A stretch of 64,000 nucleotides of DNA from contig CAZCVI010000002.1 in assembly GCA_964502145.1 (NCBI GenBank), forward strand, positions 117,383 to 181,382, written 5' to 3'. The notes under the pieces are model-generated. The model made no database searches and had not been told where the DNA came from. It worked only from the letters and a program-made list of their open reading frames with translations. The DNA is from an uncultured Clostridia bacterium. Its GTDB lineage: Bacteria; Acidobacteriota; Aminicenantia; UBA2199. Below are positions 13,924 to 64,000 of the stretch, piece by piece (positions within the stretch are counted from its first letter, which is position 1; every line of letters begins with the position of its first letter). Both the position numbers and the translations under genes were made by a program.

Positions 13924-13950
13924 CTCCTCTAAAGAGCTGAAAAAACTACC

Positions 13951-16215: not shown

Positions 16216-16322
16216 ATAAGGATCGTAGATCATGTTGTGTACTATTTTCAACGTATTATCCAATAACTTTGGCGTAACACATAAGAAAAATAAAATATAA
16301 ACCAAACAAAGGAGATTTAGCC

Positions 16323-30561: not shown

Positions 30562-31173
30562 TTAGATGACACCTGCCTTTTTGAGGTATGCGATGACGGT
30601 TTCCACTTCTTGGTCAATGGTGTGGGTATCGGCGTCAAGTATGATCTCGGCGCGTAATGGTTCTTCGTAAGGGGCGGAAATACCGGTAAACTCTTTGATC
30701 TCGCCATTCTTGGCTTTTTTATACAGTCCTTTGGGGTCTCGTTGTTCGCAGGTATCTATGGACGCTTTGACATAAATTTCGATAAAGCGACCAGCCCCGA
30801 GGAGTTCTCTGCCAAAATCGCGGTCTTTGCGATAAGGGGAAATAAAGGCGGTGGTGGTAATGACGCCCGCATCGGCGAACAGGTTACCTACTTCTGCAAT
30901 ACGACGGATATTCTCTTCGCGATCAGCGGGGGAAAAACCGAGGTTCTTGTTGAGACCGTGACGGATATTGTCGCCATCCAGTACATAGGTTAATTTACCG
31001 ATTTGATGCAGCCGGGCAGTCACCTCGTTGGCAATAGTGGATTTGCCACTGGCGGAAAGTCCGGTAAACCATAATAATACGCCTTTTTGTTTGAGAAGGG
31101 CTTCACGCTCTTCACGACTTACTTTGTGCTCGTGCCAAGTGATGTGGGTGGCTTTCTGAAAATTGCTATTCAT
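30562..31173 (-). CDS. cysC: Adenylylsulfate (APS) kinase
   Basis: [23 protein letters not shown]-loop, followed by conserved ...[17 protein letters not shown]... Confidence 0.85.
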
Positions 31174-31299
31174 TGCTGTACTTATCCTCCAAAGGGTGAT
31201 GTTGTGTTTTCTTTTTTGTTTTCTTTTTATTATTATTTTATTTTAAACAATAAAAGGTAACGATAGCAAATTATTGGCATAAATGCAAGGAATTTGTGC

Positions 31300-31345
31300 G
31301 GAAAAAAATGTGGACGATATGGACAGTATGGACGATATGGACGAT
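31300..31345. repeat. 9-bp tandem repeat array (tatggacRa x ~5), related to the repeat family at 29203
   Basis: tggacgata tggacagta tggacgata tggacgatg. A further related array (gtccaYatc) lies at 37786-37815. Confidence 0.6.
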
Positions 31346-31358
31346 GGGGATGGTGAAT

Positions 31359-32006
31359 TTATTCTAGAGAGGGGGATTTGACTTTGAGAGAGAGGGTGTT
31401 TTTCTGGTCGATCATCATTAATTCGAGGTTTAGAACTTTGGCAATATAATGGAAGGTTTTGGGGGTGAAGAAGGAGATGTGGGTGGCATCGCGGCGATAC
31501 CACCACTGGAAGAATTGTGCAGCCACGGGAGTTTGCAGGGGATGGAATAGGGTCATAATGGCCAATATGCCACCGGGATTGAGCAATTCTTTTAATAAGG
31601 TGAGTGTCTCAAAGGGATTTTTGAGATGTTCCAGTACCTCGGTACAGGTGATGAGATCATAGGTGTGCCCAAAATATATTTTTTCCGGGGCAAAGTAGGG
31701 GTCATAGACGTGTACGTCGTATCCTCTTTTTTTTAAGAGTGAGGCCAACACAGGGCCAGGACCGCTACCGAAATCAAGGGCGGTTTGGATGTGGGGGTGG
31801 AAAGGGTGAATGCTTTTTGCTATGAACTGTTCTAACATGGACACGTATCCACATTCTTCGACAGTATTTATATGTTGGAGATATCTTTGCCGTTCTTGTT
31901 CGGGAGGAAGTATTTTTGACTCTGCAATGGCAATAAAATAGCACTTGGGGCAGAAATAGTAATAAAGGATAGGGCACAACGGCCCGGCACAAATTTTACA
32001 GCCCAT
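31359..32006 (-). CDS. Class I SAM-dependent methyltransferase with an N-terminal Cys-rich (zinc-ribbon-like) segment
   Basis: MGCKICAGPLCP...FCPKC, then a motif-I-like LDFGSGPGPVLASLLKKRGYDVHVYD and a post-I/II GGILAIM. Confidence 0.55.
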   Translation of the reverse strand: MGCKICAGPLCPILYYYFCPKCYFIAIAESKILPPEQERQRYLQHINTVEECGYVSMLEQFIAKSIHPFHPHIQTALDFGSGPGPVLASLLKKRGYDVHVYDPYFAPEKIYFGHTYDLITCTEVLEHLKNPFETLTLLKELLNPGGILAIMTLFHPLQTPVAAQFFQWWYRRDATHISFFTPKTFHYIAKVLNLELMMIDQKNTLSLKVKSPSLE

Positions 32007-37700: not shown

Positions 37701-38070
37701 AGTGTTTACATATTTGGATGGCTATTGTAGATGCGACATCTTGTCGCATTGATAAAGGCATAAAGCAAAATAGATACGGTCCACTTAGTCCATATCGTCC
37801 ACATCGTCCACAACGATTTCAACAATGTGGCGGTGGATTTAGGAAAATAGTGAGGTGTTTGAAAAAATATTACTATGTGGTATAATGCGTGTTGAATCAG
37901 ATTGCTATGATTCTGATATGAATCAGATTGAATTTCAAACACACACACATGTTGATAAGAAAAATGCGTGTCCCATAAGAGGCGGAAGCCTACCTAAATA
38001 TAGTGCCACTGTTTCCAGCACTATTTCAAAACCAATTTCCCAATAATTAAAGGTCTCTCCGGGTGATAAA

Positions 38071-41000
38071 ATGAGTCAATTAGAAAGAAAGAAAATTGCG
38101 GATATTCTGATGTTAACGCATTTGCAAGAAGGGATTCTATTTCACTATCTGCAAGAACCCAAAAGCGCGCAGTATTTTGAACAATTAAGCCTGGAAATCT
38201 CGGGGGAGATCAATCTGGAACTATTCAAAACCGCATGGCATACGGTCATCCAAACCAATGAGATGCTGCGCACTGTATTCCGCTGGGAAAAAATGGAGAA
38301 ACCAACCCAGATTATCTTAAAAGAACATACCTGCGACATCACTTTTTACGACCTGACAGATGAAGCGACAAACAGGCAAAAATCCCGGCTGCAAGAGATT
38401 AAAGACAAGGATAAACAAACACCCTTTGACTTGCAAGAAGTGCCCATGCGAATTATGTTGTGCAAGCTAGGGACACACGATTATGAAATGATCATCAGCA
38501 ACCACCATATCATCTATGATGGCTGGAGCAACGGGATCATTCTGAAGGAATTCTTCAGGGCATACTATGGGCTAAGCGCGGGAAAACCTGCGCTCCTCCC
38601 GGACAAACCCTCTTTCAAAGAATTTATCAAATGGCTTCAAAACGAGGATAAATACGAAAAGGATAAACAAAAAGCGTTTTGGCGCGATTATCTAGCAGGT
38701 TTAGACGGTCAGACGGAATTACCGCTAAAAAACATAAAAAATAGAAAAAACACTGGCTCCAAGCAGGTAGAACACTATTCACTGGTTCTTGAACCGGAGT
38801 TAAAAGAGAGGTTGGAGGCGTTTGCCAAAACCAAGCGGTTCACTTTGGCCGGGGTGTTCTACACTGTCTGGGGGTTATTGCTACACCAGTATTGCAACAG
38901 CCAGGATGTTCTGTTTGGCACAACTGTAGCCGGTCGTTCCGCACGGATAAAAGGCATAGAAGAGATGGTGGGGCTGTTTATCAATACGATTCCATTACGA
39001 ATCCAAACGACTCCTGGTGAAAAAATGGTGGCGGTGGTCAGCGGCGTGGATCACGCGTTACAGGCCCGTGAACTTTTTGAGAATACACCGTTGTTGGATA
39101 TCAGAAATTACAGTGGCTTGTCTGGTTATGTATCGCTGTTTGATACGTTGGTAGTGATTGAGAATTATCCATTGGATAGTCGTTTACTGCCCGAAGAAAG
39201 CGGGTTGTCAGTTCATGCTTTTACTATTGCTGAAATGACCCATTATGATTTAACCGTGGGCATTGTGCTTTTTAATGAGATAGCCGTCACGTTTTCCTAT
39301 AACCCGGAATTATTCGCCCAGGAAATGATTGCCCATTTGGCCGGGCATTTTTTGTCTCTGGTACAGATGATTATAGAAAACGGCGAACAGGACATTTGCG
39401 CCATAGAAATAATCTCCCCTGAAGAAAAGCACCGCGTATTATATGAATTTAATAATACCGCCGCAGAATACCCATCAAACAAAACGATTCCCCAATTATT
39501 CATGGAACAATCCGCCCGGACCCCAGACTACATCGCCCTTATCTGGGAAAAAAGCGGGGCGTGCCATATATCCTATGCCGAATTAAATGAACTATCCAAC
39601 CGTCTGGCCTATTGGTTGCAAACAGAAGGCATTAGGCCCGATACTATCGTGGCTATAATGGTAAATCGTTCCATTGAAATGATTGTGGGCCTCATGGGTA
39701 TTTTAAAAGCCGGTGCCGCCTATTTACCGATTAACCCGGAATACCCGGCTGAACGAATTCAATTTATGCTGCAAGACAGCACCGCAAAAATCGTGCTCAC
39801 CGAACCAATCATCCAAGCAACCACTTCCCATATTCCCATTCCTCCCATAATTCCCATAATTCCCATTCCTCCCATAACTCCCAGTAATTTAGCCTATGTA
39901 ATATACACTTCCGGCACCACCGGCAAACCCAAAGGCGTTTTAGTAGAACATCAAAATGCCGTTAATGTGGTGTGCTGGTTAGGGCGAAAATATCAATTAA
40001 ACCCCGATACCCATATTATCTTGATGTCCGATTATACCTTTGATGCCAGTATTGATCAAATCTTCGGTGCCTTGTTGCATGGTGCCTCTCTTTATATCGC
40101 CAGTAAAGAGTTCATGTTGGATATGGATGCTTTACGCCATTACATCAATAAAAATCGGATCAATTTTATTAATTTTGTGCCGCTAGTGCTCAATGAATTG
40201 CTGGGCTATCGGGAGAAATTGCCCAGCTTAAACACCGTGATTTCCGGTGCAGAGCGGTTGGACGATACTATCAAAGATAATATCCTGAAGCGCGGCTATC
40301 ATTTATATAATCATTATGGTCCCACAGAAACCACGGTGGAGACACTGGTCTTCACTTGTACAGACGCTCCAGTTTACCTGGGGAAACCCATAGCCAATAC
40401 AAAAATTTATATACTTGATCAATGGGAACATATCGTTCCAATCGGCGTACCTGGAGAATTGTATATTGCCGGGGCCGGATTGGCCAGGGGGTATTTGAAC
40501 CGGTCCGATTTAACGGCGGAGAAATTCGTGGCCACACCCCATGGTGTAGAGAATGACCCTGTATCTCGAACCTATCGAACCGGGGACCTGGGGTGTTGGC
40601 TGCCCGATGGAAATATTGCGTTTCTGGGACGCATTGATCAGCAGGTTAAGATCCGGGGGTTCCGTGTTGAACTGGGAGAAATCGAAGCACAATTGCGCAC
40701 TTTCCCGGAAATAAAGCAGGTCGTGGTGAGCGCAAAAGAAGATAACCGTGGTGATAAAACGCTTTGTGCCTATATTGTATCCCGGCAGCTTTCTACAGGC
40801 CCCACTGCCCCCCTTGACCCAGCCGTGCTAACCACCTATTTAGCCGGTATCTTACCCGATTACATGATTCCCGCCTATTATGTCCAGTTGGCAGAAATTC
40901 CCCTGTTGCCCAATGGCAAAGTGGACCGCAAGAACTTGCCTGAGCCTGTTTTTATTGCCACCCAAGCATACCAGGAACCACGGCATGAACTGGATCGCAG

Positions 41001-44000
41001 ATTGCAAACGATATGGACGAGCGTTTTATTTGGAAACGTGCTTTCAGAAGATTCATCCGCACCACCACCTAAACCCATCGGGATTGATGATAATTTCTTT
41101 CATATGGGCGGACACTCCCTGAAGATCATGAATATGGCAGCTAAAATTCACAAGGAGTTGAACCTGGAAATACCAGTGCAAGAACTATTCACCCATCCCA
41201 CTATCCGGGTTTTGGCCAATTATATAAACACGCGGGAACACACTAAAAATATCACTAAAAATAACTTTGCAGAGATCGCCGCTATTGAAGTAAAAGAATA
41301 CTATCCACTCTCTTCGGCCCAGAAAAGAGTTTATATTTTATACCTCATGGAAACCGATAGCATCAATTACAACATGCACGAGGTATTCCGCCTGGAAGGG
41401 GAACTGGACGTGGGCCGCTTGGAAAAAAGCTTTACCCAATTGATTCGCAGACACGAAAGCTTAAGAACTTCCTTTTTCTTACTCCATGATGAACCGGTCC
41501 AGAAGATTGTGGCCGCCAGTGATGTACCATTCGCCAGCGAATTTTTTGATCCAAACGAAAAAGACACCCTGGTCGAACCTGCCCTAAACGACACCGCGTT
41601 AATGGAAAATACCACTGTTTATGACATCAACCAGCGTTTTTTAAGACCCTTTGATTTGACTCAAGCGCCCCTGTTCCGCGTCGGGCTTATTAAAATCGCC
41701 AAGAACAGCCATATCTTGATGGCAGGAATGCACCATATTATTTCCGATGGCATATCAATTGACCTATTTATCACTGATTTTGTCGCCCTCTACCGTGGCC
41801 AGAACTTACCCCCCTTGCCCATTCAATACAAAGAGTATGCCCACTGGCAGCACCAGAAAAAAGCGCAGGGCGCCTTTAATAGCCAACGCTCCTACTGGTT
41901 GCATGAATTTGCCGGTGAGCTTCCCGTATTAACCATGCCCTATGATTTCCCCAGGCCAGCCGTGCAGAGTTTTGCCGGCGACAAATATTATTTTAACCTC
42001 CCCGCATACGAAACCAAAACGTTAATAAAACGGTGCCAGGAAGAAGCGGTGACTCTTTTTATGATGCTCAGCGCTATCTATTATGTGATGCTGTGGAAAC
42101 TGAGCGGTGCCGAAGAGATCGTGGTGGGAAGCCCCACGGCTGGACGCAGACACGCTGATCTGGAATCCATTTTAGGAATGTTTGTCAACACCCTGGCAGT
42201 AAAAACCAGCCCTGCCAAGGAAACACGCTTCAAACCCTTTTTGGCACAAGTCAAACAAAAGAACCTGGCAGCTTTTGAAAACCAGGAGTACCAATTTGAT
42301 GATCTGGTGGAGGAACTATTACCCGCACGGGATTTAGGTCGCAACCCGTTATTCGACATGATGTTCATCTTGCAAAATATGACCGGCACAACTAACACGG
42401 CGATAAATATTCCGGGCTTAAAAATAACCCGCCTTCCTTTTGAAACGCATATCGCGCCTTTTGATTTTTACCTCATGGCTGAAGAACGACAGGAGTCTAT
42501 CTATTTTACCGTGGGTTATTGCACCAAATTGTTTACGCTGGAAACCGTGCGTCGGTTCATGGGGTATTACCGAGAAATTCTGGCCACAGTGGTCACCCAA
42601 CCCGAGGTGGAACTGGCACGTATAGACATATTATCCCCGGCAGAGAAACGCCAATTAGTGCAGGAATTTAATAATACCCAACGACCGTACCCACAGGGTC
42701 AAACCATTCCGCAATGGTTTGCAGAGCAGGCCGCACGAACCCCAGAAGCCATTGCCGTGGTAGGGGAGGGGGTCATCACCTATCGGGAATTAAATCAACG
42801 GGCCAATCAATTGGCCCACCTGTTGCGACAAAAAGGAGTGGCCCCAGATACCATTGTTGCCCTCTTTATGTTTCGTTCTATCCAGATGGTTGTTGGTATC
42901 CTCGGCATATTAAAAGCGGGCGGCGCTTATTTGCCGATCAACCCCGTGTATCCTGGGCAACGTGTGTTGTCTATCCTGGAAGATAGCGGTGGCAATTATT
43001 TTATAAGCGATGAAAAAACATCCCGCCCTCTTTCTTTTACCGGTTTACAGCGTTTGGATGTGCCCGAAGTGACGCCCCTGGTTACAGCCAAACGACCCCA
43101 GATCACAAATTTTGATAGCTTGCCCCATCCCGATCGTACATTGATTGATTACAGCAAATATCATCGTTATATTGGTATTGCACCCGCCAAATACACCGTC
43201 AGTATCCAGGCCACTCGCGGCTGCCCGTATCAATGTGCCTACTGCCATAAAATATGGCCCAAAACACATGTCATGCGGCGGGCTGAAGATATATTCGCCG
43301 AGATTAGCGCCTGCTATCAGGCGGGGGTGAAACGATTTGTATTTATCGACGATGTCTTCAACCTCAATAAAAAGAACAGCGGCCAATTATTTCAAACCCT
43401 GATCGACCACCACTATGATGTGCAGCTCTTTTTTCCCAACGGGTTACGCGGCGATATCCTGACCCCCGATTTTATTGACCTCATGATTGAAGCAGGCACT
43501 GTTAATATTGATCTGGCCCTGGAAACGGCCTCGCCCCGCTTGCAGAAACTGATCAATAAACAATTGAACCTGGAAAAATTCGCGGCCAACGTCCATTATA
43601 TCACCCAGAAACATCCCCATGTCGTGTTGGAGATGGAGATGATGATTGGCTTTCCCACGGAAACGGAAGCGGAAGCTTTACAAACCCTGGAATTATTGCA
43701 GAGTTTTAAATGGGTCCATTTCCCCAACCTGAATATCCTCAAAATTTATCCCAATACTGACATGGCCCAACTGGCAATTGAAAACGGGGTCAGTCGTAAA
43801 TTGATTCATTCCTCCACCACCCTTGCATTCCATGAGTTGCCAGAAACACTCCCTTTTTCAAAAGATTTTGTCCGGGAGTATCAGGCACGCTTTACCAACC
43901 AGTATTTTCTTTCCCAGGAACGGTTGCGCCATGTATTAAAACAGCAGGTCAAGAGCTTCACCGCCGATGAGCTCGTGCAAAAGTACGACAGTTATTTACC

Positions 44001-47000
44001 CGTGGAGATCAAGTCTTTTGCCGATATTCTCAAGTGTGCTGACATCTCCAGCGCTGCATTGGGGCCCATTGAATTTATTCCCGAAGCCCGCTTTGCCGCT
44101 CCCGATTTTAACCAGCGGATCAAGGCTTTTTTCCCCTCCCGCCCCAGCTCGGAAAATGCTTTTCGTCTCTTGTTTCTTGACCTGTCGCAATCCTTTCGCG
44201 CCGATATGGGCCATACCCTTTACGATGTCGGAGCCGAACCCTTGGGGTTGATGTATCTCGCCTCCTATCTCCAAGAACAACTCGGCCCACACGTTCGGGT
44301 CAAAGTGTTGAAGTCGCGCATTGATTTTGATAGTTATGCCCAATTGCAAGAACAGATCACGTTGTTCCAGCCCCATTTAATTGGTCTGCGCACCCTATCC
44401 TTGTACAAGGATTTTTTTCATCGCACTGTTTCCCTGTTGCGGCAATGGGGCATTACCGCGCCTATTATTGCTGGTGGACCCTATGCCACCAGCGATTACA
44501 AACAAATGCTCCAGGACCCACACATCCATCTCGCCGTGCTGGGAGAAGGAGAAGCCACTACCCTCCATCTGGTTAAAGAGATGATGACCAAAAACAATAC
44601 CTGGCCCGCCGACGACGTATTGGAAACCATTCCCGGTCTCGCCTTTATTCGCCAATCAGAGCGAATGTTAACCACCGCCCCCCAGCGGCAGGTGCTCTTG
44701 TTGGACCAGATTTCTGGTCCATTGGCCCACTTTCCCACCACCAATCCCCAGAACGTCAATCACCCCGGTGATTTGCTATATTTGATCTCCACTTCCGGGT
44801 CTACCGGGAAACCCAAGAGCGTGATGGTCGAGCATCGCACCCTGGTTAATTTGCTGCATTTTCAATTCCATCATACAGCCATCCATTTTTCCCGTGTCTT
44901 GCAATTTGCCGCCATCGGGTTTGATGTCTCCGTGCAAGAGATTTTTTCTGCCTTACTCGCCGGTGGCACTTTATATCTTCCTGACGAAGATATGAAAAGC
45001 GATGTGCCCCGGTTGTTCCAGTTTATCCAGCAGAACCAGATCGAAATTCTGTTTCTGCCTCCTGCATTTTTGAATTTTGTTTTTTCTGACCCCGACTATA
45101 TCCCATTATTTCCCGACTGTGTGCGCCATATTATAGCTGCTGGCGAACAATTGATCGTGAACGAGGCGTTACGATTGTTCCTGAAGCAGCGGCACGTGTA
45201 TCTCCATAATCATTATGGCCCCTCTGAGACCCATGTTGTCACCACCTTGACCATGGATCCCACCCAGGAAATCCCCCATTTCCCCGGTATTGGCAGCCCC
45301 GTATCCAACACCGGCATTTATATCTTGGATAGCCAAAGCAATCTTTTGCCCCTGGGTGTTAGCGGCGAATTAAACATTGGCGGTATCCAGGTCGGGCGTG
45401 GTTATTTGGGTAATGTGGCGTTGACTGCCGAGAAGTTTGTGCCGAATCCCTTTGTCCCCGGTGATCGCTTGTATCGCACCGGTGATATGGCCCGATGGTG
45501 GTCAAATGGGAGTATTCAGTTCTTGGGACGCTTGGATTTCCAGATCAAAATCAGGGGTTTTCGTATTGAACCCGGTGAAATCGAGGGACAATTAAAAAAA
45601 CACCCGGATATTAAAGAAACAATTGTCCTGGCTCTGGCAGATAATAAGGGCGAGCTCTATCTGGTGGCTTATGTAGTGTTACAGCCGCAGACTACCATGC
45701 CCCTCTTACGGGAATTTTTATTGAACCGATTGCCGGATTATATGGTTCCCGCCCATTTTATCCCTCTGGCACGAATTCCCTTGAACGCCAGCGGGAAAGT
45801 CGACCGTCATGCGTTACCACCACCGGAAAATACACCGGGAAACGGGCATGTAGCACCACGGGACCCCATGGAAAAAAAATTGGCCGCTATCTGGTGTACC
45901 GTGTTGGGGAAAGATGTTGCCCAAGATACAGTCAGTATTGATGATAATTTTTTTCAAATGGGTGGGCACTCCTTAAAAGCCACCGCCCTCACCTCCAGGC
46001 TAGCCAAAGAGTTTCATGTTAAAGTGCCCCTCGTGGAGATTTTTAAAGAGCCCACCATCCGGGGCCTTTCCGGTTATATTGCCCATTCTATGGTGGAGCA
46101 ATACGCTGGCATAACTCCTGTAGAAGAGCAGGAATACTACCCCTTATCGTCAGCGCAGAAACGATTGCACTTTTTACAACAAATGGATAAAGCGGGAACC
46201 ACCTATCATCTGACTAGTAACTGGCTGTTGGAAGGTGTTGTCGCTAAAAACCACCTGGAACAATCGCTGCTAAAACTGCTACAACGCCATGAGAGTTTAC
46301 GCACTTCCTTTGATATCATAGCCGAAGAACCCGTGCAAATCATCCACCCGAAATTAGCATTTGTTATTGAAGATGAACATGCTACCATGGATTCTTTCCT
46401 GCGTCCATTTGCATTATCACATGCCCCGTTGCTGCGCGTCGGATTGGTAAAAATAGCAGCCGAAAAGTTTCTCTTACTCGTGGATATGCATCATATTATT
46501 TCCGATGGGTTGTCCATGGATATTCTGAGCCGTGAATTCACCGCTCTTTTGGCAGGCGTAGAACTCCCCCCATTACGTCTCCAATACAAGGATTATGCCG
46601 CGTGGCAGAGTTCTGAAAAAGAGAGCCCCCACTTCCGTCAACAAGAATTATTTTGGCAGCAAGAGTTTAGCGGCGCCATACCCGTGCTCGATTTGCCCGT
46701 TGATTATAGCAGACCACCCGTTCAAAGTTTCGCCGGGGCATCACTTCCTTTTGCCCTATCTCGTGATAGCGTTGTTTCCTTGCAAGCCATAGCAGTAGAA
46801 GCCAGTGCCACAATGTACATGGTGCTGCTCACATGTTATACTATCTTTTTAGCTAAAATGAGCAACCAGGAAGATATTGTCATTGGCACACCCATTGCCG
46901 GTCGCAGGCATGCAGACCTGGAGAAAATTATCGGGATGTTTGTCAACACATTGGTGTTGCGGAACTATCCGGTAGCGGAGAAAAAATTCAGCGATTTCCT

Positions 47001-53000: not shown

Positions 53001-56000
53001 TATCAGGCCGTTGGATCGCACCTATGCTGGCGATCTGTTGGCCTTTGAAATTGATCGTGCAGAGACTTCGGCGTTAAATCATTTCGCCAGTCAGCAGGGG
53101 GTCACATTGTACATGGTGTTGCTCTGCTTAACCACTATCCTTTTAGCCAAGTTAAGTGGTCAGGAAACCGTGGTCGTAGGAACTCCCATTGCCGGTCGTA
53201 CCCATGCGGACCTGGGCCGGATTATCGGCATGTTTGTCAATACCCTGGCCATGAAGAATGAACCCAATGGCCAAAAAACTATCCAGGAATTTTTAAAGGA
53301 AGTCAAAGAAAACACCTTGAGTGCTTTTGCCAACCAGAACTACCAGTATGAAGAACTGGTCGAGCACCTGCCCATAGATCGCAGTCTAGGCCATAACCCC
53401 TTGTTTGACACCCTGTTGGTCTTGCAAAACATGGCTCTGCCCAATATCAATATTCCCGAATTGACCTTAACACCCTATCCGTATCATACCGGTTTGGTAA
53501 ATTTTGATTTGACTTTCCTGTGTGTTGAAACCCCAGCTACCCTCTCGTTCACCCTTGAATACAGTACAGAACTCTTTAAAAAAGAAACCGCCCAACGCTT
53601 TATCGGTTTTTTCAAAAAGATATTAACCACCGTATTGGCGCACCCCGAAGGAAAAATATCCCAGATCGAGATAATATCCCAGCCAGAAAAAACCCAGATT
53701 TTATATGATTTCAACAACACCACCGTTACATACCCGGCCAACCAAACCCTTCCCCAATTATTTTCCGACCAAGCCGCACGAACCCCAGACCATATCGCCA
53801 TTATTGGTCCCACCCTGGCTCTAACCCACTGCCAATTAACCTACTCCCAATTAAACGAAGCATCCAATCGCCTCGCCCATTGGTTACTTTCCACTGGCGT
53901 CCGTCCCAATACCATCGTCGCCATCATGATCGAACGTTCCATTGAATTGATCATCGGCATTATCGGCATATTAGAATCCGGTGCCGCCTATCTTCCCATC
54001 GATCCCCAATACCCCGAGGAGCGAAAACAATATATACTAGCAGACAGCAATACAACCCTCATCCTAACCCAACACTCCATCCAACAAGCCATTCCCATCA
54101 CTCCCATCACTCCCAACACTCCCATAATTCCCATACTTCCCATCACTCCCATAAATCTCGCCTATATCATCTACACTTCCGGTTCCACCGGCAGACCCAA
54201 GGGCGTCATGGTAGACCATCACAGCATCGCCAACACCTTGTATTACCGCTGCCAGGAATATCGTATCGTGCCCAGTGATCGTGTACTCCAATTGTTTTCC
54301 TTTGCTTTTGATGGATTTCTCACCTCTTGTTTTACCCCCCTGCTTTCTGGCGCATCTGTCGTGCAGTTAAGCCAGGAGGACATAAAAGATATCTTCCGTA
54401 TCAAAGAGATGATTGTCGCCCAACGAATCACCCACTTTATCGCTGTCCCGTCCCTGTACCGCTCTTTATTGGAAGTCGCCACTGCCCTTGAGTTATCCCA
54501 CCTAAAAATCGTAACCCTTGCCGGTGAGCAGGTGCCCCCCGACCTCGTGGTAAAAAGTAAGTCTTTAAACCCCTTGTTGGAATTGGTCAATGAGTACGGT
54601 CCCACCGAGAGCAGTGTCCTGACCTCCATACACAGAAACCTCGAACCCGGTGCCATTATTTCCATCGGTAAACCCATAGCCAATACCCGGATTTATATTC
54701 TTGATCAAGATGATCATGTTGCCCCCATCGGGTTACCCGGTCAACTCGTTATATCTGGTCTTGGTTTGGCCCGCGGGTATCTCAATAATCCCCAACTCAC
54801 CGCCGCTACATTTTTCTCTTTAGCCCATTCAGCCACCTTCGCCACCCTCTCACCAAAACTCTATAAGAGCGGTGATTTGGCCCGCTGGTTGCCAGATGGA
54901 AACATAGAGTTCCTCGGTCGCATTGATCAGCAGGTTAAAATCCGTGGCTTCCGTATTGAATTGGGCGAGATCGAAAACCAACTGCTTCGCCATCCCCAGA
55001 TCAAAGAGGCAGTAGTGGATGTTAGAACCGAAAACAGCGGCGATCACTATTTATGCGCTTATATTGTCACCCAGGGCGAATGGGACATCTCCCAGGCAAG
55101 AGAATATCTGGCCAAGACCTTACCCGATTACATGATTCCCGCGCATTTTGTCGCCTTGGAGAAAATCCCCTTGTCCCCCACTGGCAAGATTCTACGTTCA
55201 GCCTTACCCCAACCGCAATTAAAAAGCGCGGCCCAGTACGTGCCCCCCCGCAATGACATAGAACAACAATTGGTAGAGATATGGACCGAGATTTTGGGCA
55301 GTGATCCATTGTTTGCCTCTTTTTTACATCCCTCTATAGGCATTGATGATAACTTTTTCCATCTCGGTGGGCACTCCTTAAAAGCCATGACCATGGTCAC
55401 CAAGCTCCATAAAGCCCTAAATGTTAAAGTGCCCTTGGTGGAAGTCTTTAAAACCTTGACCATCAGGAAACTGGCCGCCTATATTTTAGGTTTAAAAAAA
55501 GAGTTATACACCGCCATCCAACCCGCTGAAACCAGAGAGTATTATGACTTATCCTCTGCCCAGCGCCGGTTTTATATCTTGCAGCAAATGGAGCTGGACA
55601 GTTTTGCCTACAACAATTTTTCCGTCATGGTTTTGGACGGATTATTTGATAAAGAGAAATTTGGCCACGCGTTAAACCAATTGATCGCCAGACATGACAG
55701 TTTAAGAACCTCTTTTGAATTAATCGGAGGTGAACCTTTCCAAAAGATACATCAACAAGTAGTCGCGGAAATCGCTTATTTTGATTTCACCCCTCCCGGA
55801 AAAAGTCAGCTCTTAGAATCCACCATCCAACATTTTAACCGTCCTTTTGATTTATCTCATGCCCCCTTGCTCAGGTTCGGCATTATTCTCGTGGAGCAGC
55901 AAAAATCCTTGTTGCTGTTAAGCCTCCACCATATCATCAGTGACGGCACATCCATCGGCACCTTTATGAACGAGTTAATTTATTTATACCTGGGCCGAGA

Positions 56001-56889: not shown

Positions 56890-56891
56890 CA

Positions 56892-59800
56892 ATGTCTAAA
56901 GGAAAAGAAACCATGAGAAAACAAACCAATGCCCCCTCCAAACTAGCTTTTGTTTTTCCCGGAATTGGTTCTTTATGGAAACAAATGGGCCTTCGCTTAT
57001 TACAAGAAGACGTTTTTCGCACGACGATCCAGGAATGCGATGAGGCCTTTCGTTTGAATCCCTCAGTCGCTTGGTCAATTGTAGAAGAGATCAACGCCCC
57101 GGTAGCGCTTTCAAGAATCGAAGATATCTGTATCGGTTATCCCTGCGGCTTGGCTATTGAGATAGCCTTAACCGCCTTATTAAAAAGCCGTGGTATCCTC
57201 CCCCATGCTGTAATCGGTCACAGTGGTGGCGAAATTCCCGCGGCTTATGCCGCAGGCATTCTGAATTTACCCGATGCCTTTCGCGCTATCTGGGGTCACT
57301 ATATGGAAATGAGCAAAAGAAACAACGCGGTCAACATGGCCTATATCGGCTTGCCCGTAACCAAAGTGGCGCAAACCATACAACTCCACCACGCCCAATC
57401 CCGCATATTCATCGCCGCTGTAAACAGTCCTAAATCCACCATCATCTCCGGTCACACAGACGCCATTAAACCCCTGCTGGAATCTCTCGCCAAAGAAAAA
57501 GTATTTTGCCGCATCTTGGACACCCTGGGCGCGTTTCATTCTCCGATCATGGAAGAGAATAGAACGGAAATTTATACCCGCTTAAAAGACATCCAAGCCA
57601 AAGAAGCCACCATCCCCTTTTACTCCTCCCTGTTAGGCAAATTGGGACACGATAATCTTGCGCTACCCTTGTACTGCACCAATCTGATGATACAACCCGT
57701 GTTGTTTGCCGATGGCATTCAAGCCCTGATTAAAGATGGCTATACCACCTTTTTAGAGATCAGCCCCCATCCCGTTCTTTCCAGAAATATCCAGGAAATA
57801 CTCGAAGCATGCAACCTAGAGAACGCACAGGTTCTGCCAACCTTAAAACGCGATGAGGACGACAAAAGAATGTTCGCAGAATGTCTCGACCATCTTGCCA
57901 CAGCCCACCCCGCATCACACACTTTCTTTTCGTCCCCGCCACCCACCATTGACCCCGCCCAAAAGAAAGCCTTTATCGTAACAACAATCACCCAATCCAT
58001 CCAGGACCTTTTAAAATGCCCCCCTGTTTCCCCTGTGGATGTCTACCTCGGTTTTTTTGATATGGGCTTTGATAGCATGAAAGCATTACAATTTAAAGAT
58101 ATATTATCCCAACGACTCGGTTTATCTCTCCCCGTGACCTTGATCTTTGATTATCCTGATATTCATTCCCTGAGCCACTATTTACTCTCCAGATTTACCC
58201 TATCAACCCCTGCCACAGAGGACAATAACCCGCTCCTTGAAACCAGTACAGAACCCATCGCCATCGTTGGCATGGCGTGTCGTTTTCCTGGTGGTGCCAA
58301 TACCCTCGATACCTTCTGGGACCTATTAAAAAACGGGCGGGATACCGTAAGCGATATCCCCGAGGAGCGTTGGAATGGTCAGATGTATTATTCTCCAGAG
58401 ATCACACCCGGAAAAACCAACACCCACCGGGGAAATTTTATTTCTGGTATTGATATCACCACCTTTGACGCCAATTTTTTCAAGATTTCACCCAAGGAAG
58501 CCAGAGCATTGGACCCCCAGCATCGGCTTCTTTTAGAAGTAACTGTTGAAGCTTTGGAAAATGCCGCCATTCCGCTGTTAAGTATCAGAGATAAACAAGT
58601 CGGCGTGTTTATCGGCATATGTTCCGATGATTATAAATTAGCCCACCTCCATGCCGCCGATTTAACCCACATGGATGCATACGCCGCCTCTGGTTCCATG
58701 CTTGGACCCGCCGCGGGCAGGATATCTTATTTCCTTGGGCTCAGAGGACCATCCCTGTCCGTTGATACCGCGTGCTCTTCTGCCCTGACCGCCCTTCATT
58801 ATGCAGTGTTATCGCTCCGCCACCGTGAATGTGAGACCGTCATCACCGGTGGCGTAAACTGTTTGTTATCCCCTAATATGTTCGTGTATTTGAGCCAGCT
58901 CAATACCTTGTCCCAAGATGGGACATGTAAAACCTTTGATGAAAAAGCCGATGGTTTTGGTAGGGGAGAAGGGTGTGGCGTTTTAGTATTAAAGCGCTTG
59001 TCCGATGCCCGGCGCGACAACGATAATATCTGGGCCATTATCCAGGGTTCCGCCGTGAACCACGATGGCGCCAGTGCCGGTTTCACCGCTCCCAATGGCG
59101 TCGCCCAGCAAGAAGTGATCCAAAAAGCCCTGTTAGATGCCCGTGTTTCCCCTGCCAGTGTCGATTATATTGAAACCCATGGAGCAGGCACGCCACTGGG
59201 CGACCCCATCGAAATACAAGCTATAGCGGAAGTATACGGTAAAAATCGGGCCCAAGATGTGCCCCTTCTCGTGGGCGCTGTAAAAACAAATATCGGACAC
59301 TTGGAAGCTGCCGCTGGCGTAGCTGGAATGATCAAAACCATCCTCTCCTTACATCACCACATCATCCCCCCTCACCTCCATGTCTCCCACCCCAACCCCC
59401 AGATCAACTGGGAACAGATCCCGGTAAAAATAAATACCGGTTTAACCCCCTGGTTCCCCCGTGAGCAACCCAGGCGTGCCGCCATCAGCGGTTTTGGCTT
59501 CAGCGGAACCAATGCCCACGTGATTATTCAAGAACCACCCCTTTGGGCAGATGAAACCAACACCACATCAGACCCATATCCCGTTCATATGTTGAATTTA
59601 TCCGCCAAAACCCCCCGTGCCTTAAACGAATTGGCCCGGTTATACACGGACTATCTTTCCAATCCATCTTTGCCTGATTTAGGCGATATATGTTATACTG
59701 CTGCCACCGGTCGTTCTCATTTTTCTTTTAGATATTCCGCCGTGGGCAAAGATGTTTCTGAAATCAAGCATAAGCTCGAATACTTCCTGGCCAATCAAAC

Positions 59801-62800
59801 CAATCATTCCACTGTCACCCAAGATAAAAACGAGCTGAATAAAAAAATCGCTTTCCTTTTCACCGGGCAGGGGTCGCAGTATGTTGGCATGGGCAAAGAG
59901 TTATACCATGCCGAACCCATATTTAAAGCCGCCTTAACCACCTGCGACCAACTCTTCCAAAAAGTACTGGACCTATCCATCATCGAATTATTGTATGCCC
60001 CCCTATCTACCGATGAGATCGTCGCCCAAGCCATTCATGCCCAACCCATTATTTTTGCCATCCAATATGCCCTGGTCAAACTCTGGCAATCCTGGGGCAT
60101 AGAACCCGCCCTGGTTATCGGACACAGCATCGGCGAATATGCCGCCGCGTGTACCGCTGGCGTTTTTAGCTTGGAAGATGCCGTCAAACTCGTGGCCATC
60201 CGGGGTCGATTAATGCAATCCGTCAGCCAATCCGGGCGCATGGCCGGTATTCTAACCTCCGAGGAAAACGCCCGCGCCTTTATCGCCCCCTATCAAAACG
60301 ACGTGTCCATCGCTGCTGTTAATGCCCCTGAAAATGTCACCATCTCCGGTAGCCTAGAATCCATAAACAACGTGTTGGCCCATGTTAAACAGGCAAAAAT
60401 TTTTATCGAACAACTTCCTATTTCCCATGCCTTTCATTCCGTGCTCATGGAACCCTATGTAGAGTCATTCAGTCGCGAAATCGCTGGAATTGTGTTCTCC
60501 CCCCCACAATTACCTTTCATTTCAACCGTTACCGGTTTACCCGCCCACCAAGAAATAACCCAGCCCCAGTATTGGGCGCAGCATTTTTGCCGTACCGTGC
60601 GCTATTATGACAGTATCACCTTGGCTCACACCCAGGGCGTCCAAATTTTTCTCGAAATCGGCGGCACTGCCACCCTAACAGGGCTCGCCGCCCAGTGTTT
60701 GCCCGCCACAAATGCCCTTTTTATTCCTTCCTTGCGAAAAGGAAAGTCTGCCTGCCAACAACTATTAACCAGTCTCTCCCAATTGTATACCCACGGCATA
60801 AATATCCAGTGGCAAAAATTTTATCACCCCTTTCAGTATAAAAAAGTAATCCTTCCCAACACCCCTTTTTTGCGTGAAAGGTTCTGGATGGATAACCTTC
60901 TTCCAGTCTTACCCACCCAGAAAAATGAATTAGTACAACCTATACCAGAGGAAATCGTGATCGAGGACACTAATAATATGGAAAATACAGCACACATTCT
61001 TATTGAAATAAAAGAGATGGTTCATACTATTTCCGGTTTGCGCCCCGAAGCGCTTGATGATGATTCCGAATTGTTTGCCATGGGACTCGATTCATTGATG
61101 ATGACCGAGTTACGGCGCAAAATAACCGGCCAGTATGGCATAGATATTTCTCTGAATGAATTTTTCATGGAATTAACCACCCTGCACAAAATAGCCCGAC
61201 ATCTCCAGCATAAGTTCCACCCCCTGGCAAAGAAAACGGCAGTCACCCCCCAGTTTATAGATACAATGACTATTCCAGCCCCGCAGGCAGGTGAAACCAT
61301 GCCTGTTTCCACCATGGAACGTATCCTGACGCAACAAATGGAGGCCATGAAAGAGCACTCTTTACGGATCTCCGATTTAGCGTTAAAACAATTGGAAGCC
61401 CTAAAGAATCTGCAGGTTCCCGTTCCTCCAGTTCCCCCCGTGGTCGCTCCTACTGTTGTAGCCGAACCTATCACCAAACCCCTTCACTTTTCCGCTACCG
61501 CCGATCTGCGCCAGCGCGGTTTGACCCTGCGGCAGCAGGAGCACTTGGATAGACTTATACAGCGTTATACCGCGCGCACCCATTCCTCCAAAGAACAGAC
61601 CCGCCACGACCGCGACGTCCTCGCCGATAGTAAAGGGACAGTCGGGTTTAATCTTGCCACCAAGGAAATGTTGTACCCCCTCATTGGCAAGTCTGCCAAA
61701 GGCTCCCGTATCTGGGATATTGATGGTAATGAATACGTCGACATCACCATGGGCTTTGGCGTCTATCTGTTTGGTCATCATCCCGAATTTCTCAAGAAAG
61801 CCTTCCGTGAACATCACGAAGATGCACCCGAATTAGGCCCCCGTTCCCCCTGGGTGGGCAAGGCCGCTGCTTTAATTGCGCAATTCACCCGTTTGGAACG
61901 TGTCGCTTTTGCCAATACCGGCACTGAAGCTGTCATGACCGCTATTCGTCTCGCCCGTGCCGCGACCGGACGCACCAAAATCGCCATGTTTTCCCGTTCT
62001 TACCACGGCCATTCCGATGGCACCCTGGCTGTCTCCACCATACGTAACGGTCAACTTTTTTCCGAACCCGTTTCACCCGGAATTCCCCATAGTGTTGTCC
62101 AGGAAACGATTGTTTTGGATTACCTCGAACCCCACGCCCTGGAGATTATCCGCCAACAGGGGCCCCAACTGGCTGCCGTGCTGGTTGAACCCGTGCAAAG
62201 CCGGTATCCCGATGTCAACCCCGCCCCATTTCTCCACGAATTAAGACGTATCACCCGGGAAACAGGTTGCCTGTTGATATTTGATGAAATGATTACCGGG
62301 TTCCGTATTCATCCTGGTGGCGCCCAGGCGTATTTTAATGTTGAGGCCGATATCTGTGTCTATGGAAAAATTATCGGTGGCGGTTTACCTATCGGTGTCA
62401 TTGCCGGGAAAGCCCACTATATGGATCACATCGACGGCGGTACCTGGGACTATGGCGATACCTCGTACCCTGCCGTGGAAAGAACCTTTTTCGGCGGCAC
62501 ATTCTGCCAGTACCACCAGGCCATGTTGGCCGCTACTACGGTTTTAGAATACCTCCAAGACCAGGGCCCCCAATTGCAACACCAATTGAATCTCAAAACA
62601 AAACAATTGGCCGATACACTCAATACTTATTTTGAAGAAAACAATATCACCATCCGTGTGCTTTATTTTGGTTCCATTTTCCGTTTCGAAATCCAGGGTG
62701 GTCTCGATTTATTTTACTTTCATATGTTGGAAAAAGGCGTGTACATCTGGGAGTGGCGTAATTGTTTCCTTTCTACCGCCCATACCCAGGAAGACCTGGA

Positions 62801-64000
62801 TCATATTTTTCGCGCCGTCAAAGAGACCGTGACCGAACTGGAACAAGGCGGTTTTTCCCTCCATAGCGGGCACTCCGCCACCTCCCAATCACATTCCGGG
62901 GACTACTATCCCATGTCCTCCGTGCAAAAACGATTGTTTGTGTTGAGTCAATCCCAGGAAGGGGACCGCGCCTACCATGTGCCTATTGCCGTGCAAATCG
63001 AGGGCCCAGTAAATATTGAAAAATTCCAGGCCATTTTCAAAGAGTTATTCCTGCGCCACGAGATATTTCGTACTGGCTTGGAAATAAAAGAGGAGCAGTG
63101 GGTGCAACATGTTTATCCAGTCGATGAAGTGGCATTTTCTATCCGTCATGTTAACATTAAAGAAACCGATATCAATACATTATTGGCAGAGCTGTTACGT
63201 CCCTTTGATCTATCCAAGCCCCCATTGTTACGTGCCACCATGGGTGAAATTTCTCCCACTCGCTTCGTATTCATTTTAAATTTCCATCACACCGTGATCG
63301 ATGGCGCTTCATTTACCCTCTTTATGCAAGACTTTTTCAATCTTTATAACCACCATCCGCTTCCCCCCGTCAAGATGCAGTATAAAGAATACACCCAGTG
63401 GGAACAACAGTACCTAAAGTCACCCGATTTTAAAGCCCAGGAGGAATATTGGTTGCACCAATTGGGCGGTGAACTCCCCCTGCTGGAATTACCCACCGAT
63501 TTTCCCAGGCCGCCCATTTTAGACTTTGAAGGCGATGTCTTCCGCTTTAAAATCCAGATTGATAAAGTCGACAGGGTGAAAGCACTGGCCAAAAAAACGG
63601 GTTCCAGTTTGAACATGCTGCTACTGGCTATATATAATGTACTCCTCTTTAAATTGACCCAGCAAGAAGACATGCTCGTGGGCATCCCCGCCAGTGTCAT
63701 CTGGAATGAGCAATTCGAGCGCACCGTCGGCATGTGTACCAATACCCTCGTCATCCGCAATTGTCCCGCCGGGAATAAACCCTTCACCCGCTTTTTAAAA
63801 GAAGTGAAAACCAATTGTTTACAAGCCTACTCCCACCAGGAATACCCCTATGAAGAATTGGTCAGTAAATTCCCAGGCAAACGAGATATTAGTCACAACC
63901 CGTTTGTGGATGTGATGTTTGTCTATGAAAACGGTAACAGTCGCTTATATGATCTGGCTGATCTGACCGTTACCCCCCGTGATATCAACGTGGGCGCCTC
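56892..64000 (+). CDS. PKS/NRPS hybrid protein, 3'-truncated by the window: AT-ACP-KS-AT-ACP-aminotransferase(PLP, class III)-C...
   Basis: An open frame to the window end. It is not in the ORF track because no stop falls in the window. The start is at 56892 (MSKGKET) or 56913 (MRKQT). AT motifs GHSGGE (57216) and GAFHS. ACP GFDSM (58063). KS DTACSSAL (58764), HGAGT and NIGH. AT GHSIGE (60121) and AFHS. ACP MGLDSL (61081). A GSA-aminotransferase-like domain has GKIIGGGLP (62364). The C domain has HHTVIDG (63285). Confidence 0.85.
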   Translation, partial: MSKGKETMRKQTNAPSKLAFVFPGIGSLWKQMGLRLLQEDVFRTTIQECDEAFRLNPSVAWSIVEEINAPVALSRIEDICIGYPCGLAIEIALTALLKSRGILPHAVIGHSGGEIPAAYAAGILNLPDAFRAIWGHYMEMSKRNNAVNMAYIGLPVTKVAQTIQLHHAQSRIFIAAVNSPKSTIISGHTDAIKPLLESLAKEKVFCRILDTLGAFHSPIMEENRTEIYTRLKDIQAKEATIPFYSSLLGKLGHDNLALPLYCTNLMIQPVLFADGIQALIKDGYTTFLEISPHPVLSRNIQEILEACNLENAQVLPTLKRDEDDKRMFAECLDHLATAHPASHTFFSSPPPTIDPAQKKAFIVTTITQSIQDLLKCPPVSPVDVYLGFFDMGFDSMKALQFKDILSQRLGLSLPVTLIFDYPDIHSLSHYLLSRFTLSTPATEDNNPLLETSTEPIAIVGMACRFPGGANTLDTFWDLLKNGRDTVSDIPEERWNGQMYYSPEITPGKTNTHRGNFISGIDITTFDANFFKISPKEARALDPQHRLLLEVTVEALENAAIPLLSIRDKQVGVFIGICSDDYKLAHLHAADLTHMDAYAASGSMLGPAAGRISYFLGLRGPSLSVDTACSSALTALHYAVLSLRHRECETVITGGVNCLLSPNMFVYLSQLNTLSQDGTCKTFDEKADGFGRGEGCGVLVLKRLSDARRDNDNIWAIIQGSAVNHDGASAGFTAPNGVAQQEVIQKALLDARVSPASVDYIETHGAGTPLGDPIEIQAIAEVYGKNRAQDVPLLVGAVKTNIGHLEAAAGVAGMIKTILSLHHHIIPPHLHVSHPNPQINWEQIPVKINTGLTPWFPREQPRRAAISGFGFSGTNAHVIIQEPPLWADETNTTSDPYPVHMLNLSAKTPRALNELARLYTDYLSNPSLPDLGDICYTAATGRSHFSFRYSAVGKDVSEIKHKLEYFLANQTNHSTVTQDKNELNKKIAFLFTGQGSQYVGMGKELYHAEPIFKAALTTCDQLFQKVLDLSIIELLYAPLSTDEIVAQAIHAQPIIFAIQYALVKLWQSWGIEPALVIGHSIGEYAAACTAGVFSLEDAVKLVAIRGRLMQSVSQSGRMAGILTSEENARAFIAPYQNDVSIAAVNAPENVTISGSLESINNVLAHVKQAKIFIEQLPISHAFHSVLMEPYVESFSREIAGIVFSPPQLPFISTVTGLPAHQEITQPQYWAQHFCRTVRYYDSITLAHTQGVQIFLEIGGTATLTGLAAQCLPATNALFIPSLRKGKSACQQLLTSLSQLYTHGINIQWQKFYHPFQYKKVILPNTPFLRERFWMDNLLPVLPTQKNELVQPIPEEIVIEDTNNMENTAHILIEIKEMVHTISGLRPEALDDDSELFAMGLDSLMMTELRRKITGQYGIDISLNEFFMELTTLHKIARHLQHKFHPLAKKTAVTPQFIDTMTIPAPQAGETMPVSTMERILTQQMEAMKEHSLRISDLALKQLEALKNLQVPVPPVPPVVAPTVVAEPITKPLHFSATADLRQRGLTLRQQEHLDRLIQRYTARTHSSKEQTRHDRDVLADSKGTVGFNLATKEMLYPLIGKSAKGSRIWDIDGNEYVDITMGFGVYLFGHHPEFLKKAFREHHEDAPELGPRSPWVGKAAALIAQFTRLERVAFANTGTEAVMTAIRLARAATGRTKIAMFSRSYHGHSDGTLAVSTIRNGQLFSEPVSPGIPHSVVQETIVLDYLEPHALEIIRQQGPQLAAVLVEPVQSRYPDVNPAPFLHELRRITRETGCLLIFDEMITGFRIHPGGAQAYFNVEADICVYGKIIGGGLPIGVIAGKAHYMDHIDGGTWDYGDTSYPAVERTFFGGTFCQYHQAMLAATTVLEYLQDQGPQLQHQLNLKTKQLADTLNTYFEENNITIRVLYFGSIFRFEIQGGLDLFYFHMLEKGVYIWEWRNCFLSTAHTQEDLDHIFRAVKETVTELEQGGFSLHSGHSATSQSHSGDYYPMSSVQKRLFVLSQSQEGDRAYHVPIAVQIEGPVNIEKFQAIFKELFLRHEIFRTGLEIKEEQWVQHVYPVDEVAFSIRHVNIKETDINTLLAELLRPFDLSKPPLLRATMGEISPTRFVFILNFHHTVIDGASFTLFMQDFFNLYNHHPLPPVKMQYKEYTQWEQQYLKSPDFKAQEEYWLHQLGGELPLLELPTDFPRPPILDFEGDVFRFKIQIDKVDRVKALAKKTGSSLNMLLLAIYNVLLFKLTQQEDMLVGIPASVIWNEQFERTVGMCTNTLVIRNCPAGNKPFTRFLKEVKTNCLQAYSHQEYPYEELVSKFPGKRDISHNPFVDVMFVYENGNSRLYDLADLTVTPRDINVGA
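61380..62840 (+). other. Aminotransferase (AMT) domain, class III PLP-dependent (glutamate-1-semialdehyde-aminomutase-like), as in MycA/ItuA/McyE beta-amination modules
   Basis: GFNLATKEMLYPLIGKSAKGSRIWDIDGNEYVDITMGFG...ANTGTEAVMTAIRLARAATGR...DEMITGFRIHPGGAQ...YGKIIGGGLPIGV. Confidence 0.7.

Follow-up and report, generated by a model that had tools for sequence, protein, structure and literature searches.

The locus described here raises the question of where in a growing peptide a beta-amino acid is installed when the gene that forms it brings its own loading domains and lies directly behind a megasynthase that ends in a condensation (C) domain. The stretch of DNA analysed, called the window, comprises 64,000 nucleotides of contig CAZCVI010000002.1 (assembly GCA_964502145.1), of which positions 38071-64000 are the 5' part of an uncharacterised hybrid nonribosomal peptide synthetase (NRPS)-polyketide synthase (PKS) cluster of an uncultivated bacterium. 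Two genes on the + strand make up this part, gene 1 (38071..56889) and gene 2 (56892..64000, open at the window end). A second question is posed by a radical S-adenosylmethionine (SAM) and B12-binding insert within the second adenylation (A) domain of gene 1, A2. A domains interrupted in this way are a large undescribed family and the most novel element of the cluster. For the first question, the order of action put forward here, at a little short of an even chance, is an in-line one, in which genes 1 and 2 would act colinearly and the terminal C domain of gene 1, C5, would acylate the beta-amine held on the second acyl carrier protein of gene 2, ACP2.

Gene 1 encodes a 6272-residue NRPS-PKS hybrid according to the open reading frame call and Pfam (the public gene call starts 13 codons further in and gives 6259 residues), and 2369 residues of gene 2 are visible. 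A 2-base gap separates the stop of the first from the start of the second on the same strand. Pfam profiles gave the order C-A-T / C-A(radical-SAM/B12 insert)-T / C-A-T / KS-AT-ACP / C-A-T / C for gene 1 (T, thiolation; KS, ketosynthase; AT, acyltransferase; ACP, acyl carrier protein), in agreement with the four NRPS modules, internal KS-AT-ACP and C-terminal C domain of the initial annotation, and the opening C-domain motif HHIIYDGWS was found at residue 145. Gene 2 reads AT_L-ACP_L-KS-AT-ACP2-AMT-C, where AT_L-ACP_L is a loading-type AT-ACP and AMT an aminotransferase. E-values for both genes ranged from 1e-10 to 0, far beyond chance, and upheld all of the earlier domain assignments, KS, AT and AMT included.

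Module 1 of gene 1 consists of C at residues 10-455 (C1, 38098..39435), A at 478-950 and T (A1-T1, 39502..41226). In module 2, C lies at 1075-1530 (C2, 41293..42660), the two A pieces at 1550-1660 and 2226-2446, and T at 2603-2670; in module 3, C lies at 2687-3113 and A at 3133-3620, followed by T (C3-A3-T3, 46129..49206, the T3 serine in GGNS). The PKS module (49306..52338) has KS at 3746-4123, AT at 4274-4568 and ACP at 4693-4756, and the last part has C at 4780-5211, A, T at 5733-5799 (C4-A4-T4, 52408..55467) and the terminal C at 5823-6255 (C5 with its tail, 55537..56886). The visible part of gene 2 holds AT at 20-340 and ACP at 365-431 (AT_L-ACP_L, 56949..58184), KS at 454-831, AT at 988-1304 and ACP at 1373-1438 (KS-AT-ACP2, 58251..61205), Aminotran_3 at 1597-1955 with 170 bits (AMT, class III pyridoxal phosphate (PLP) aminotransferase, 61680..62756, PLP lysine in YGKIIGGGLP) and C from residue 2004 (62901..64000, HHTVIDG, cut by the window end), all on the + strand. 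HHxxxDG was present in six of six C domains and the carrier serine in seven of seven carrier domains of the two genes. The KS active-site cysteine was kept in both (TACSTS in gene 1, DTACSS in gene 2), as were the KS histidine motifs, and the AT serines were present in the ATs of both genes. KS-AT-ACP-AMT-C, named beforehand as the hallmark of beta-amino-fatty-acid or Adda-type starter units, is a known architecture for forming beta-amino acids, and gene 2 holds all of its domains together with the PLP lysine. Compared with NCBIfam, the AMT resembled glutamate-1-semialdehyde (GSA) aminomutases with 270 bits, below the cut-off of that model.

The C domains were typed with phmmer against solved structures. 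C5 scored 377 bits against TycC6 (2jgp) and is therefore a full, ordinary LCL condensation domain and no epimerase; its active site HHIISDG is intact, and its identity to C2-C4 is 39-43%. C2 is of LCL type by Pfam and by its identity to the other C domains. Among themselves C2-C5 share 39-47% identity, compared with about 22% to C1. C1 reached 277 bits against TycB1, 270 against SrfA-C, 252 against McyB and 241 against PvdL, whereas the LCL domain TycC6 gave 96 bits and the starter-C structures (7c1h, 4jn3) about 40. The alignment of gene 1 with SrfA-C begins at the first residue of both (MSQLERKKIADILMLTHLQEGILFH against MSQFSKDQVQDMYYLSPMQEGMLFH). C1 is thus of DCL type and by its looks an acceptor of an upstream chain, in line with the earlier proposal that it probably takes an upstream intermediate. 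A first typing of C2-C5 as DCL and of C1 as starter had been overturned by the search against PDB structures. Motif scans of the window and of the related loci, as far as these are visible, found neither an epimerisation (E) domain nor a thioesterase (TE); in the wider family, proteins that end in E and bear COM-like tails do occur (P0380).

Behind C5 follows a conserved tail (56818-56886) of the form (L/I)SH(D/E)L..~15 aa..(D/E)F(E/D/G)F-COOH, which in gene 1 runs out in ...LSHELKGATASIYDDAEIEF. The same tail, with SH(D/E)L, about 15 further residues, an acidic part and FEF, ends the protein ahead of the AT_L protein in seven of seven loci (the window, L081, L082, L085, L086, L098 and L099). 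AT_L proteins whose own last domain is a C domain, and which hence need a downstream partner, carry it as well, and altogether it is present on 24 of 146 family representatives. The gene 1 tail is acidic (...EIEF) and the N-termini of AT_L proteins are short and basic. The tail is probably a short docking motif; no published description of an SH(D/E)L...FEF C-terminal tail was found.

In the seven AT_L loci just named, which are those with a visible upstream side, a C-terminated protein lies directly upstream on the same strand in every case, and these upstream proteins differ greatly from one another. In 32 of 32 other genome loci in which a loader (fatty-acyl-AMP ligase or AT) precedes KS-AT-AMT, four actinomycete AT_L loci among them, the cassette is the first gene and nothing NRPS- or PKS-like lies upstream. 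C5 has its closest relative in L098, in the C domain that stands there before the AT_L gene (60% identity) and shares the motif IGLFIET with it. A motif signature common to the C domains ahead of AT_L was not found, and the odd IGL(F/L)IE occurred in the window and L098 only. Proteins of AT_L-family clusters are generally split after C, and the next one starts with A or with a half-C-like region and A; each terminal C domain therefore serves the carrier of the next protein. Taken together, the hand-over tail and the contrast in synteny slightly favour the in-line order. The initial annotation had taken gene 2 for the initiation protein and had let the terminal C domain of gene 1 hand over to a protein beyond the window. 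Neither is the best-supported reading any more, given the C-terminated upstream protein in all seven loci and the shared tail, which points to gene 2.

Two further features were observed in related clusters. Proteins at L081 5557-9714, 20610-24848 and 25043-30559, L086 15081-19826 and L097 24493-32658 start with a region of about 250 residues that is weakly like the C-terminal half of C domains only (25-28% identity). It precedes A-T-C, a full C domain concludes the protein before it, and the region may be a pseudo-C docking region at C/A split points. In L098 (1447-16756), the AT_L protein stops after AMT and the next open reading frame restarts with ACP-AMT-C-A-T-C; either ACP-AMT is truly duplicated here or a repeat has led to an error in the assembly.

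Gene 2 has its nearest relatives among metagenomic proteins that are 52-58% identical, none of which was found to be characterised, and its homologues have 3354-3549 residues and the order AT-ACP-KS-AT-ACP-AMT-C-A-T-C. The word-indexed protein search listed nothing above about 4150 residues and may lack very long proteins. Among 185,579 species genomes (GTDB, one per species), the best match to AMT-C reached 46% identity across the whole query and up to 60% in local segments, and the cluster is accordingly no close copy of a known one and no fragment of a microcystin- or iturin-family cluster. A metagenome scan with the AT_L-ACP_L N-terminus returned two loci, both irrelevant, and a literature search on NRPS of Aminicenantes gave nothing relevant.

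In the order put forward here, C1 would receive an acyl or D-configured peptidyl donor. Gene 1 would then add residue 1 and proline, and the embedded radical-SAM domain would modify the T2-bound proline, most likely by C-methylation. Residue 3 would be added, one malonate extension would give a gamma-amino-beta-keto unit, and residue 4 would follow. In parallel, a small monocarboxylic acyl group would be loaded on gene 2 and extended with malonate, and transamination of the beta-ketone would yield beta-aminoacyl-S-ACP2. C5 would dock through its acidic tail on the short basic N-terminus of gene 2, the gene 1 chain would acylate the beta-amine, and the gene 2 C domain would pass the product to the next A-T beyond the window. 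AT-ACP-KS-AT-ACP-AMT would in this way replace the A-T of an elongation module. Of the non-colinear gene order that had been proposed earlier, a part probably remains, as gene 1 comes first and yet seems to be no initiator, but genes 1 and 2 themselves would be colinear. Some non-colinearity is found in most readings because the donor of C1 is not encoded ahead of gene 1.

Several points weigh against this order. To our knowledge, no C domain is on record as acylating a beta-amine that an AMT formed in cis. Nearly every protein in AT_L clusters ends in C, which limits the information in a junction of C and AT_L, and the seven AT_L loci share ancestry and are not independent. In a neighbour-joining tree the C domains ahead of AT_L formed no clade of their own, and only the C domains behind AMT clustered, that of the window among them. 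The visible cluster starts are non-initiator domains (a DCL-type C in the window, a KS in L099), so an initiator would have to be encoded elsewhere, which a rotation with gene 2 first explains more cheaply. In each of the characterised systems, mycosubtilin, iturin, puwainaphycin and microcystin, it is with the cassette that the chain begins, and the amine remains free until the ring is closed (PMC4219810).

Such a rotated order is a serious competitor, though rather doubtful in itself. Gene 2 would start with its beta-amine left free and gene 1 would act last; a downstream protein ended by T-E would dock on the DCL-type C1, and C5 would release the product, probably closing a macrolactam on the beta-amine in the manner of the TE of iturins. 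All characterised AMT cassettes that bear a loader are initiators (PMC4219810), as are the cassettes of all 32 genome loci mentioned above. C1 aligns with the DCL domains of SrfA-C, TycB and McyB, which dock on E-terminated partners, and a single assumption would cover the protein upstream of gene 2 together with the absent initiator, gene 1 and the KS-first protein of L099 opening their clusters without being initiators. The lack of a TE motif in any visible part of these clusters would fit as well. However, gene 1 bears the hand-over tail, for which a last protein should have no need, C5 is a canonical LCL domain of the elongation type and not of a divergent terminal type, and the rotation would have to hold in all seven loci despite their very different upstream proteins.

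The second question concerns A2, in which an insert of about 565 residues between motifs a2 (about residues 1612-1625) and a3 (TSGSTGKPK, residue 2241) divides the match to the AMP-binding profile into two pieces, positions 1-117 and positions 155-384. Both halves of A2 are intact, the N-terminal piece with motifs a1-a2 (42718..43050, + strand, profile positions 1-117) and the C-terminal piece with a3-a10 followed by T2 (44746..46080, + strand). The insert (43051..44745, + strand) consists of a radical-SAM core, a helical linker and a B12-binding Rossmann domain, as read from Pfam, NCBIfam and an AF2 model. Only two Pfam families matched it, Radical_SAM at residues 1713-1876 (56.8-59.7 bits, cut-off 29.5, with CPYQCAYC at residue 1718) and B12-binding at residues 2056-2166 (40-43 bits, cut-off 32.1). 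Within NCBIfam, the radical-SAM part fitted class B models (BchE, ApyD, PhpK, BzaD and AprD4) at about positions 160-400 and the C-terminal part the N-terminus of KedN5-type methylases, both far below cut-off. As the radical-SAM half fits the centre of class B models and the B12 end fits the N-terminus of KedN5, the insert is circularly permuted. The AF2 model, built from 61 sequences, had a pLDDT of 90.3 and a pTM of 0.89, and Foldseek matched its fold in the PDB to AprD4, MgmA, TsrM, MiaB/RimO, CysS and TokK, with no single alignment extending beyond about half of the model, which is what a permuted order would lead one to expect.

When 1.84 billion representatives were searched exhaustively with HMMER, 834 of them matched the insert family at E<=1e-30, mostly from Acidobacteriota or Aminicenantes-like and other uncultivated lineages. 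Among the best 150 matches almost all were megasynthases of 1,000-7,900 residues, some with two copies, and gene 1 itself was recovered as P0362 (100%). CxxxCxxC and many further residues are invariant across 61 sequences. In 37 of the 120 best word-index matches to the insert, pieces of an A domain stood at the same site on one or both sides. Stand-alone homologues of about 550 residues keep the same order of radical SAM and then B12 (P0229, P0137), and the permuted family exists both free and embedded in A domains. Stand-alone permuted proteins also lie beside NRPS genes in L088 (8221-13331), L089 (9941-11638) and L097 (22712-24436), those of L088 and L089 being 48-53% identical to the insert; L088 has three of them in tandem, and one occurs in the cultured Clostridium polysaccharolyticum. 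No description of radical SAM within NRPS A domains was found in full-text literature searches.

Most class B enzymes of natural-product pathways are C-methylases, and the class B enzymes of bottromycin reportedly include a proline beta-methylase. The nearest functional counterpart found in the literature is DscE, a free-standing B12 radical-SAM enzyme by which the nonribosomal discodermins are C-methylated (PMC12858407). By analogy, the insert would most likely C-methylate prolyl-S-T2 on the line, presumably acting on the T2-bound residue after loading as in other interrupted A domains. Against this it has to be said that the function is derived from family resemblance only, and that AprD4, the best structural match, is no methylase. 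An unlikely though substantial alternative is that the insert performs other radical chemistry (epimerisation, dehydration, desaturation or cyclisation) or is an inactive relic. By sequence and by fold alike it is best matched by AprD4, a diol dehydratase that has a B12-like domain and is not known to bind cobalamin, all NCBIfam methylase models score far below cut-off, and modules 2-4 of gene 1 are without E domains. The prevalence of methylases among the class B natural-product enzymes, the one acting on proline in bottromycin included, and DscE with its nonribosomal substrate (PMC12858407) speak against this alternative, and the motif and invariant residues kept in 61 sequences, together with the 834 representatives, argue against a relic.

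The residue on which the insert would act follows from the specificity codes, which were read by alignment to a GrsA-PheA fragment (the fragment itself, as a control, gave DAWTIAAICK). All four A-domain codes of gene 1 were extracted, DADNIGHVEK for A1, DVQFIAHVVK for A2, DWWHCGMIIK for A3 and DGTATAEVLK for A4, and only A2 could be assigned. Its code corresponds to the proline code of Stachelhaus (DVQLIAHVVK) and of TycB1/GrsB1. The best single-domain PDB hits of A2 were the Pro-activating TycB1 (451 bits) and the Gramicidin S synthase 2 chain 8p5o (328 bits), presumably the Pro-activating A core of GrsB1. By code and by these hits, A2 is a proline-type adenylation domain. A1, A3 and A4 matched no code that could be named, A4 being weakly Leu-like, and a literature search on the four codes gave nothing relevant. 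A link of the insert to proline specificity as a rule was ruled out, since the A domains around three codable homologous inserts had two Pro-like codes and one Thr code.

The PKS module of gene 1 has no reductive domains, a KS of hybrid type (TACSTS, HGTGT) and an AT that is non-canonical around the active site (GYSFG, FAAH) and has kept the carboxylate-binding Arg. In gene 2, AT_L (GHSGGE...IWGHYME) has His/Trp where R117 of FabD would be, and is akin to modular PKS ATs (163 bits to DEBS, 143 bits to the avermectin loading AT, 4rl1), whereas the extender AT2 has GHSIG, HAFH and the Arg and is of malonyl type. AT_L without and AT2 with the malonyl-binding Arg therefore point to a monocarboxylic-acyl starter and a malonate extender, and the KS of gene 2 is of the typical PKS type and compatible with a simple acyl starter. 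Pfam gave no AMP-binding domain ahead of this KS and hence no fatty-acyl-AMP ligase. Thus the term lipopeptide-like, used in the initial annotation, is unsupported, because the loader is an AT-ACP lacking the carboxylate-binding Arg and not a fatty-acyl ligase.

The genes upstream of gene 1 lie on the opposite strand, the operon starts with gene 1, and a promoter-like site TTGAAA-16-TGnTATAAT (37859..37886, + strand, 11 of 12 consensus matches, weak evidence) lies about 185 bp ahead of it. This position, the DCL-first NRPS P0374 that is likewise first in its cluster (L097) and the 241 bits of C1 to the PvdL C domain, which uses a fatty-acyl-S-T donor, would suit a fully colinear line in which C1, although of the DCL clade, serves as a starter C and N-acylates residue 1 from acyl-CoA or a trans acyl-ACP, gene 1 comes first in the biosynthesis too and the chain moves on to gene 2 as in the in-line order, but this is improbable, as the best matches of C1 are classical DCL domains behind E domains, solved starter-C structures score only about 40 bits, and neither an acyl ligase nor a free ACP is visible within the window.

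Orphan NRPS-PKS clusters are common, and the cluster alone would be unremarkable. That it combines both devices, a self-priming beta-amino cassette in mid-line, which would make the line convergent, and permuted radical-SAM/B12 C-H chemistry within an A domain, probably proline C-methylation, is a tentative view held at clearly less than an even chance. If true, the insert would add the functionalisation of unactivated C-H bonds to on-line tailoring, in which the known inserts cover N-, O- and S-methylation, reduction and oxidation, and its family would stand for hundreds of uncharacterised synthetases in uncultivated phyla. The 834 representatives are a defined target for enzymology and genome mining. 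If the cassette works in mid-line, beta-amino acids could be inserted anywhere in a peptide and not at its start only, which would be useful for assembly-line engineering and for predicting structures with colinearity rules of the antiSMASH type.

Elsewhere in the window, a gene set resembling those for ribosomally synthesised and post-translationally modified peptides (RiPPs) was observed at 12079-16820 (+). It encodes a B12/radical-SAM protein that exceeds the cut-off of TIGR03975 (RiPP maturation radical SAM C-methyltransferase) with 437 bits, a YcaO cyclodehydratase of the fused SagC/SagD type that does so for TIGR03604 (271 bits) and TIGR03882 (159 bits) and, behind these, a 165-residue open reading frame that ends in ...EIVLTCC and weakly matches the NHLP leader (18.7 bits, short of the cut-off). 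The set could be a cluster of the proteusin/TOMM type, distinct from the NRPS. In a radical SAM/SPASM protein at 27814-29202 (+) the usual order is inverted, with SPASM (residues 22-85) ahead of the radical-SAM core (residues 113-247). Of the NCBIfam models, a tungsten-cofactor oxidoreductase maturase fits this protein best, far below cut-off, and its gene is flanked by short-chain dehydrogenase/reductase (SDR) and DNA glycosylase genes. At 17061-22337 (+) lies a 1758-residue signalling protein with Ser/Thr kinase, AAA_16 STAND-type ATPase, GAF and SpoIIE/PP2C phosphatase domains. A 164-residue homologue of AbiEii-type nucleotidyltransferase toxins (22605-23099, -) and a weak YhgA-like transposase match (388-1326, +) could be what is left of mobile or defence elements ahead of the cluster. 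APS kinase and class I methyltransferase genes (30562-32006, -) are found on the opposite strand, 6-7 kb ahead of gene 1, and could conceivably tailor the product, for example by sulfation via PAPS. The neighbouring S46 peptidase has its nearest named homologues in metagenome-assembled genomes of Candidatus Aminicenantes (58-66% identity), so that the source is probably an Aminicenantes/Acidobacteriota-like bacterium.

Compared with characterised AMT systems, gene 2 resembles MycA/ItuA and PuwC-E in that KS-(AT)-ACP, a class III PLP aminotransferase and a C domain feed an NRPS (PMC4219810). The loader of MycA/ItuA is a fatty-acyl-AMP ligase, whereas that of gene 2 is an AT-ACP without the malonyl-binding Arg. 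MycA-like cassettes open the assembly line, while gene 2 follows a C-terminated megasynthase, an arrangement present in seven of seven related loci and in none of the 32 elsewhere. Iturin-type systems close the ring by a TE, of which the visible gene 1/gene 2 clusters have no motif. McyE/NdaF, the Adda module, is also a PKS module that ends in AMT and is fused to an NRPS C domain. McyE takes over a long polyketide from McyG/McyD and has a C-methyltransferase domain between AT and ACP; it lacks a loader of its own, in contrast to gene 2, which has its own AT-ACP and no Pfam match to a methyltransferase. Cyanobacterial relatives of gene 2 are 41-44% identical. The loading didomains of PKS (AT-ACP of DEBS and avermectin) are like the start of gene 2, an N-terminal AT-ACP before KS with an AT that lacks the Arg. 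The N-terminal DCL domains of SrfA-C, TycB and McyB align with C1 from the first residues and with 250-277 bits, but their genes lie directly behind E-terminated partners, whereas gene 1 is the first of its operon.

In the same way as the interrupted A domains of TioN, TioS and KtzH, A2 holds a foreign catalytic domain, and a2-a3 is a documented site (PMC8341866, PMC11355689). The catalogue of Lundy et al. 2020 (families 1-7) contains class I SAM methyltransferase inserts only (PMC8341866), and two reviews from 2024, PMC11355689 among them, describe M, KR and Ox inserts; radical SAM and cobalamin go unmentioned in all three. With 260-390 residues for the class I SAM methyltransferases, or as KR/Ox, the known inserts differ from the about 565 residues of radical SAM and B12 in A2. 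With the class B radical SAM enzymes TokK, CysS, TsrM, Mmp10, AprD4, PoyC/BotRMT and DscE, the insert shares the CxxxCxxC barrel and the Rossmann-type B12 domain, and class B enzymes are linked to peptide natural products. The B12 domain of these enzymes lies N-terminal to the radical-SAM domain, whereas the order is reversed in the insert, P0229 and P0137. No curated family is reached by the insert, and many of its relatives sit inside A domains.

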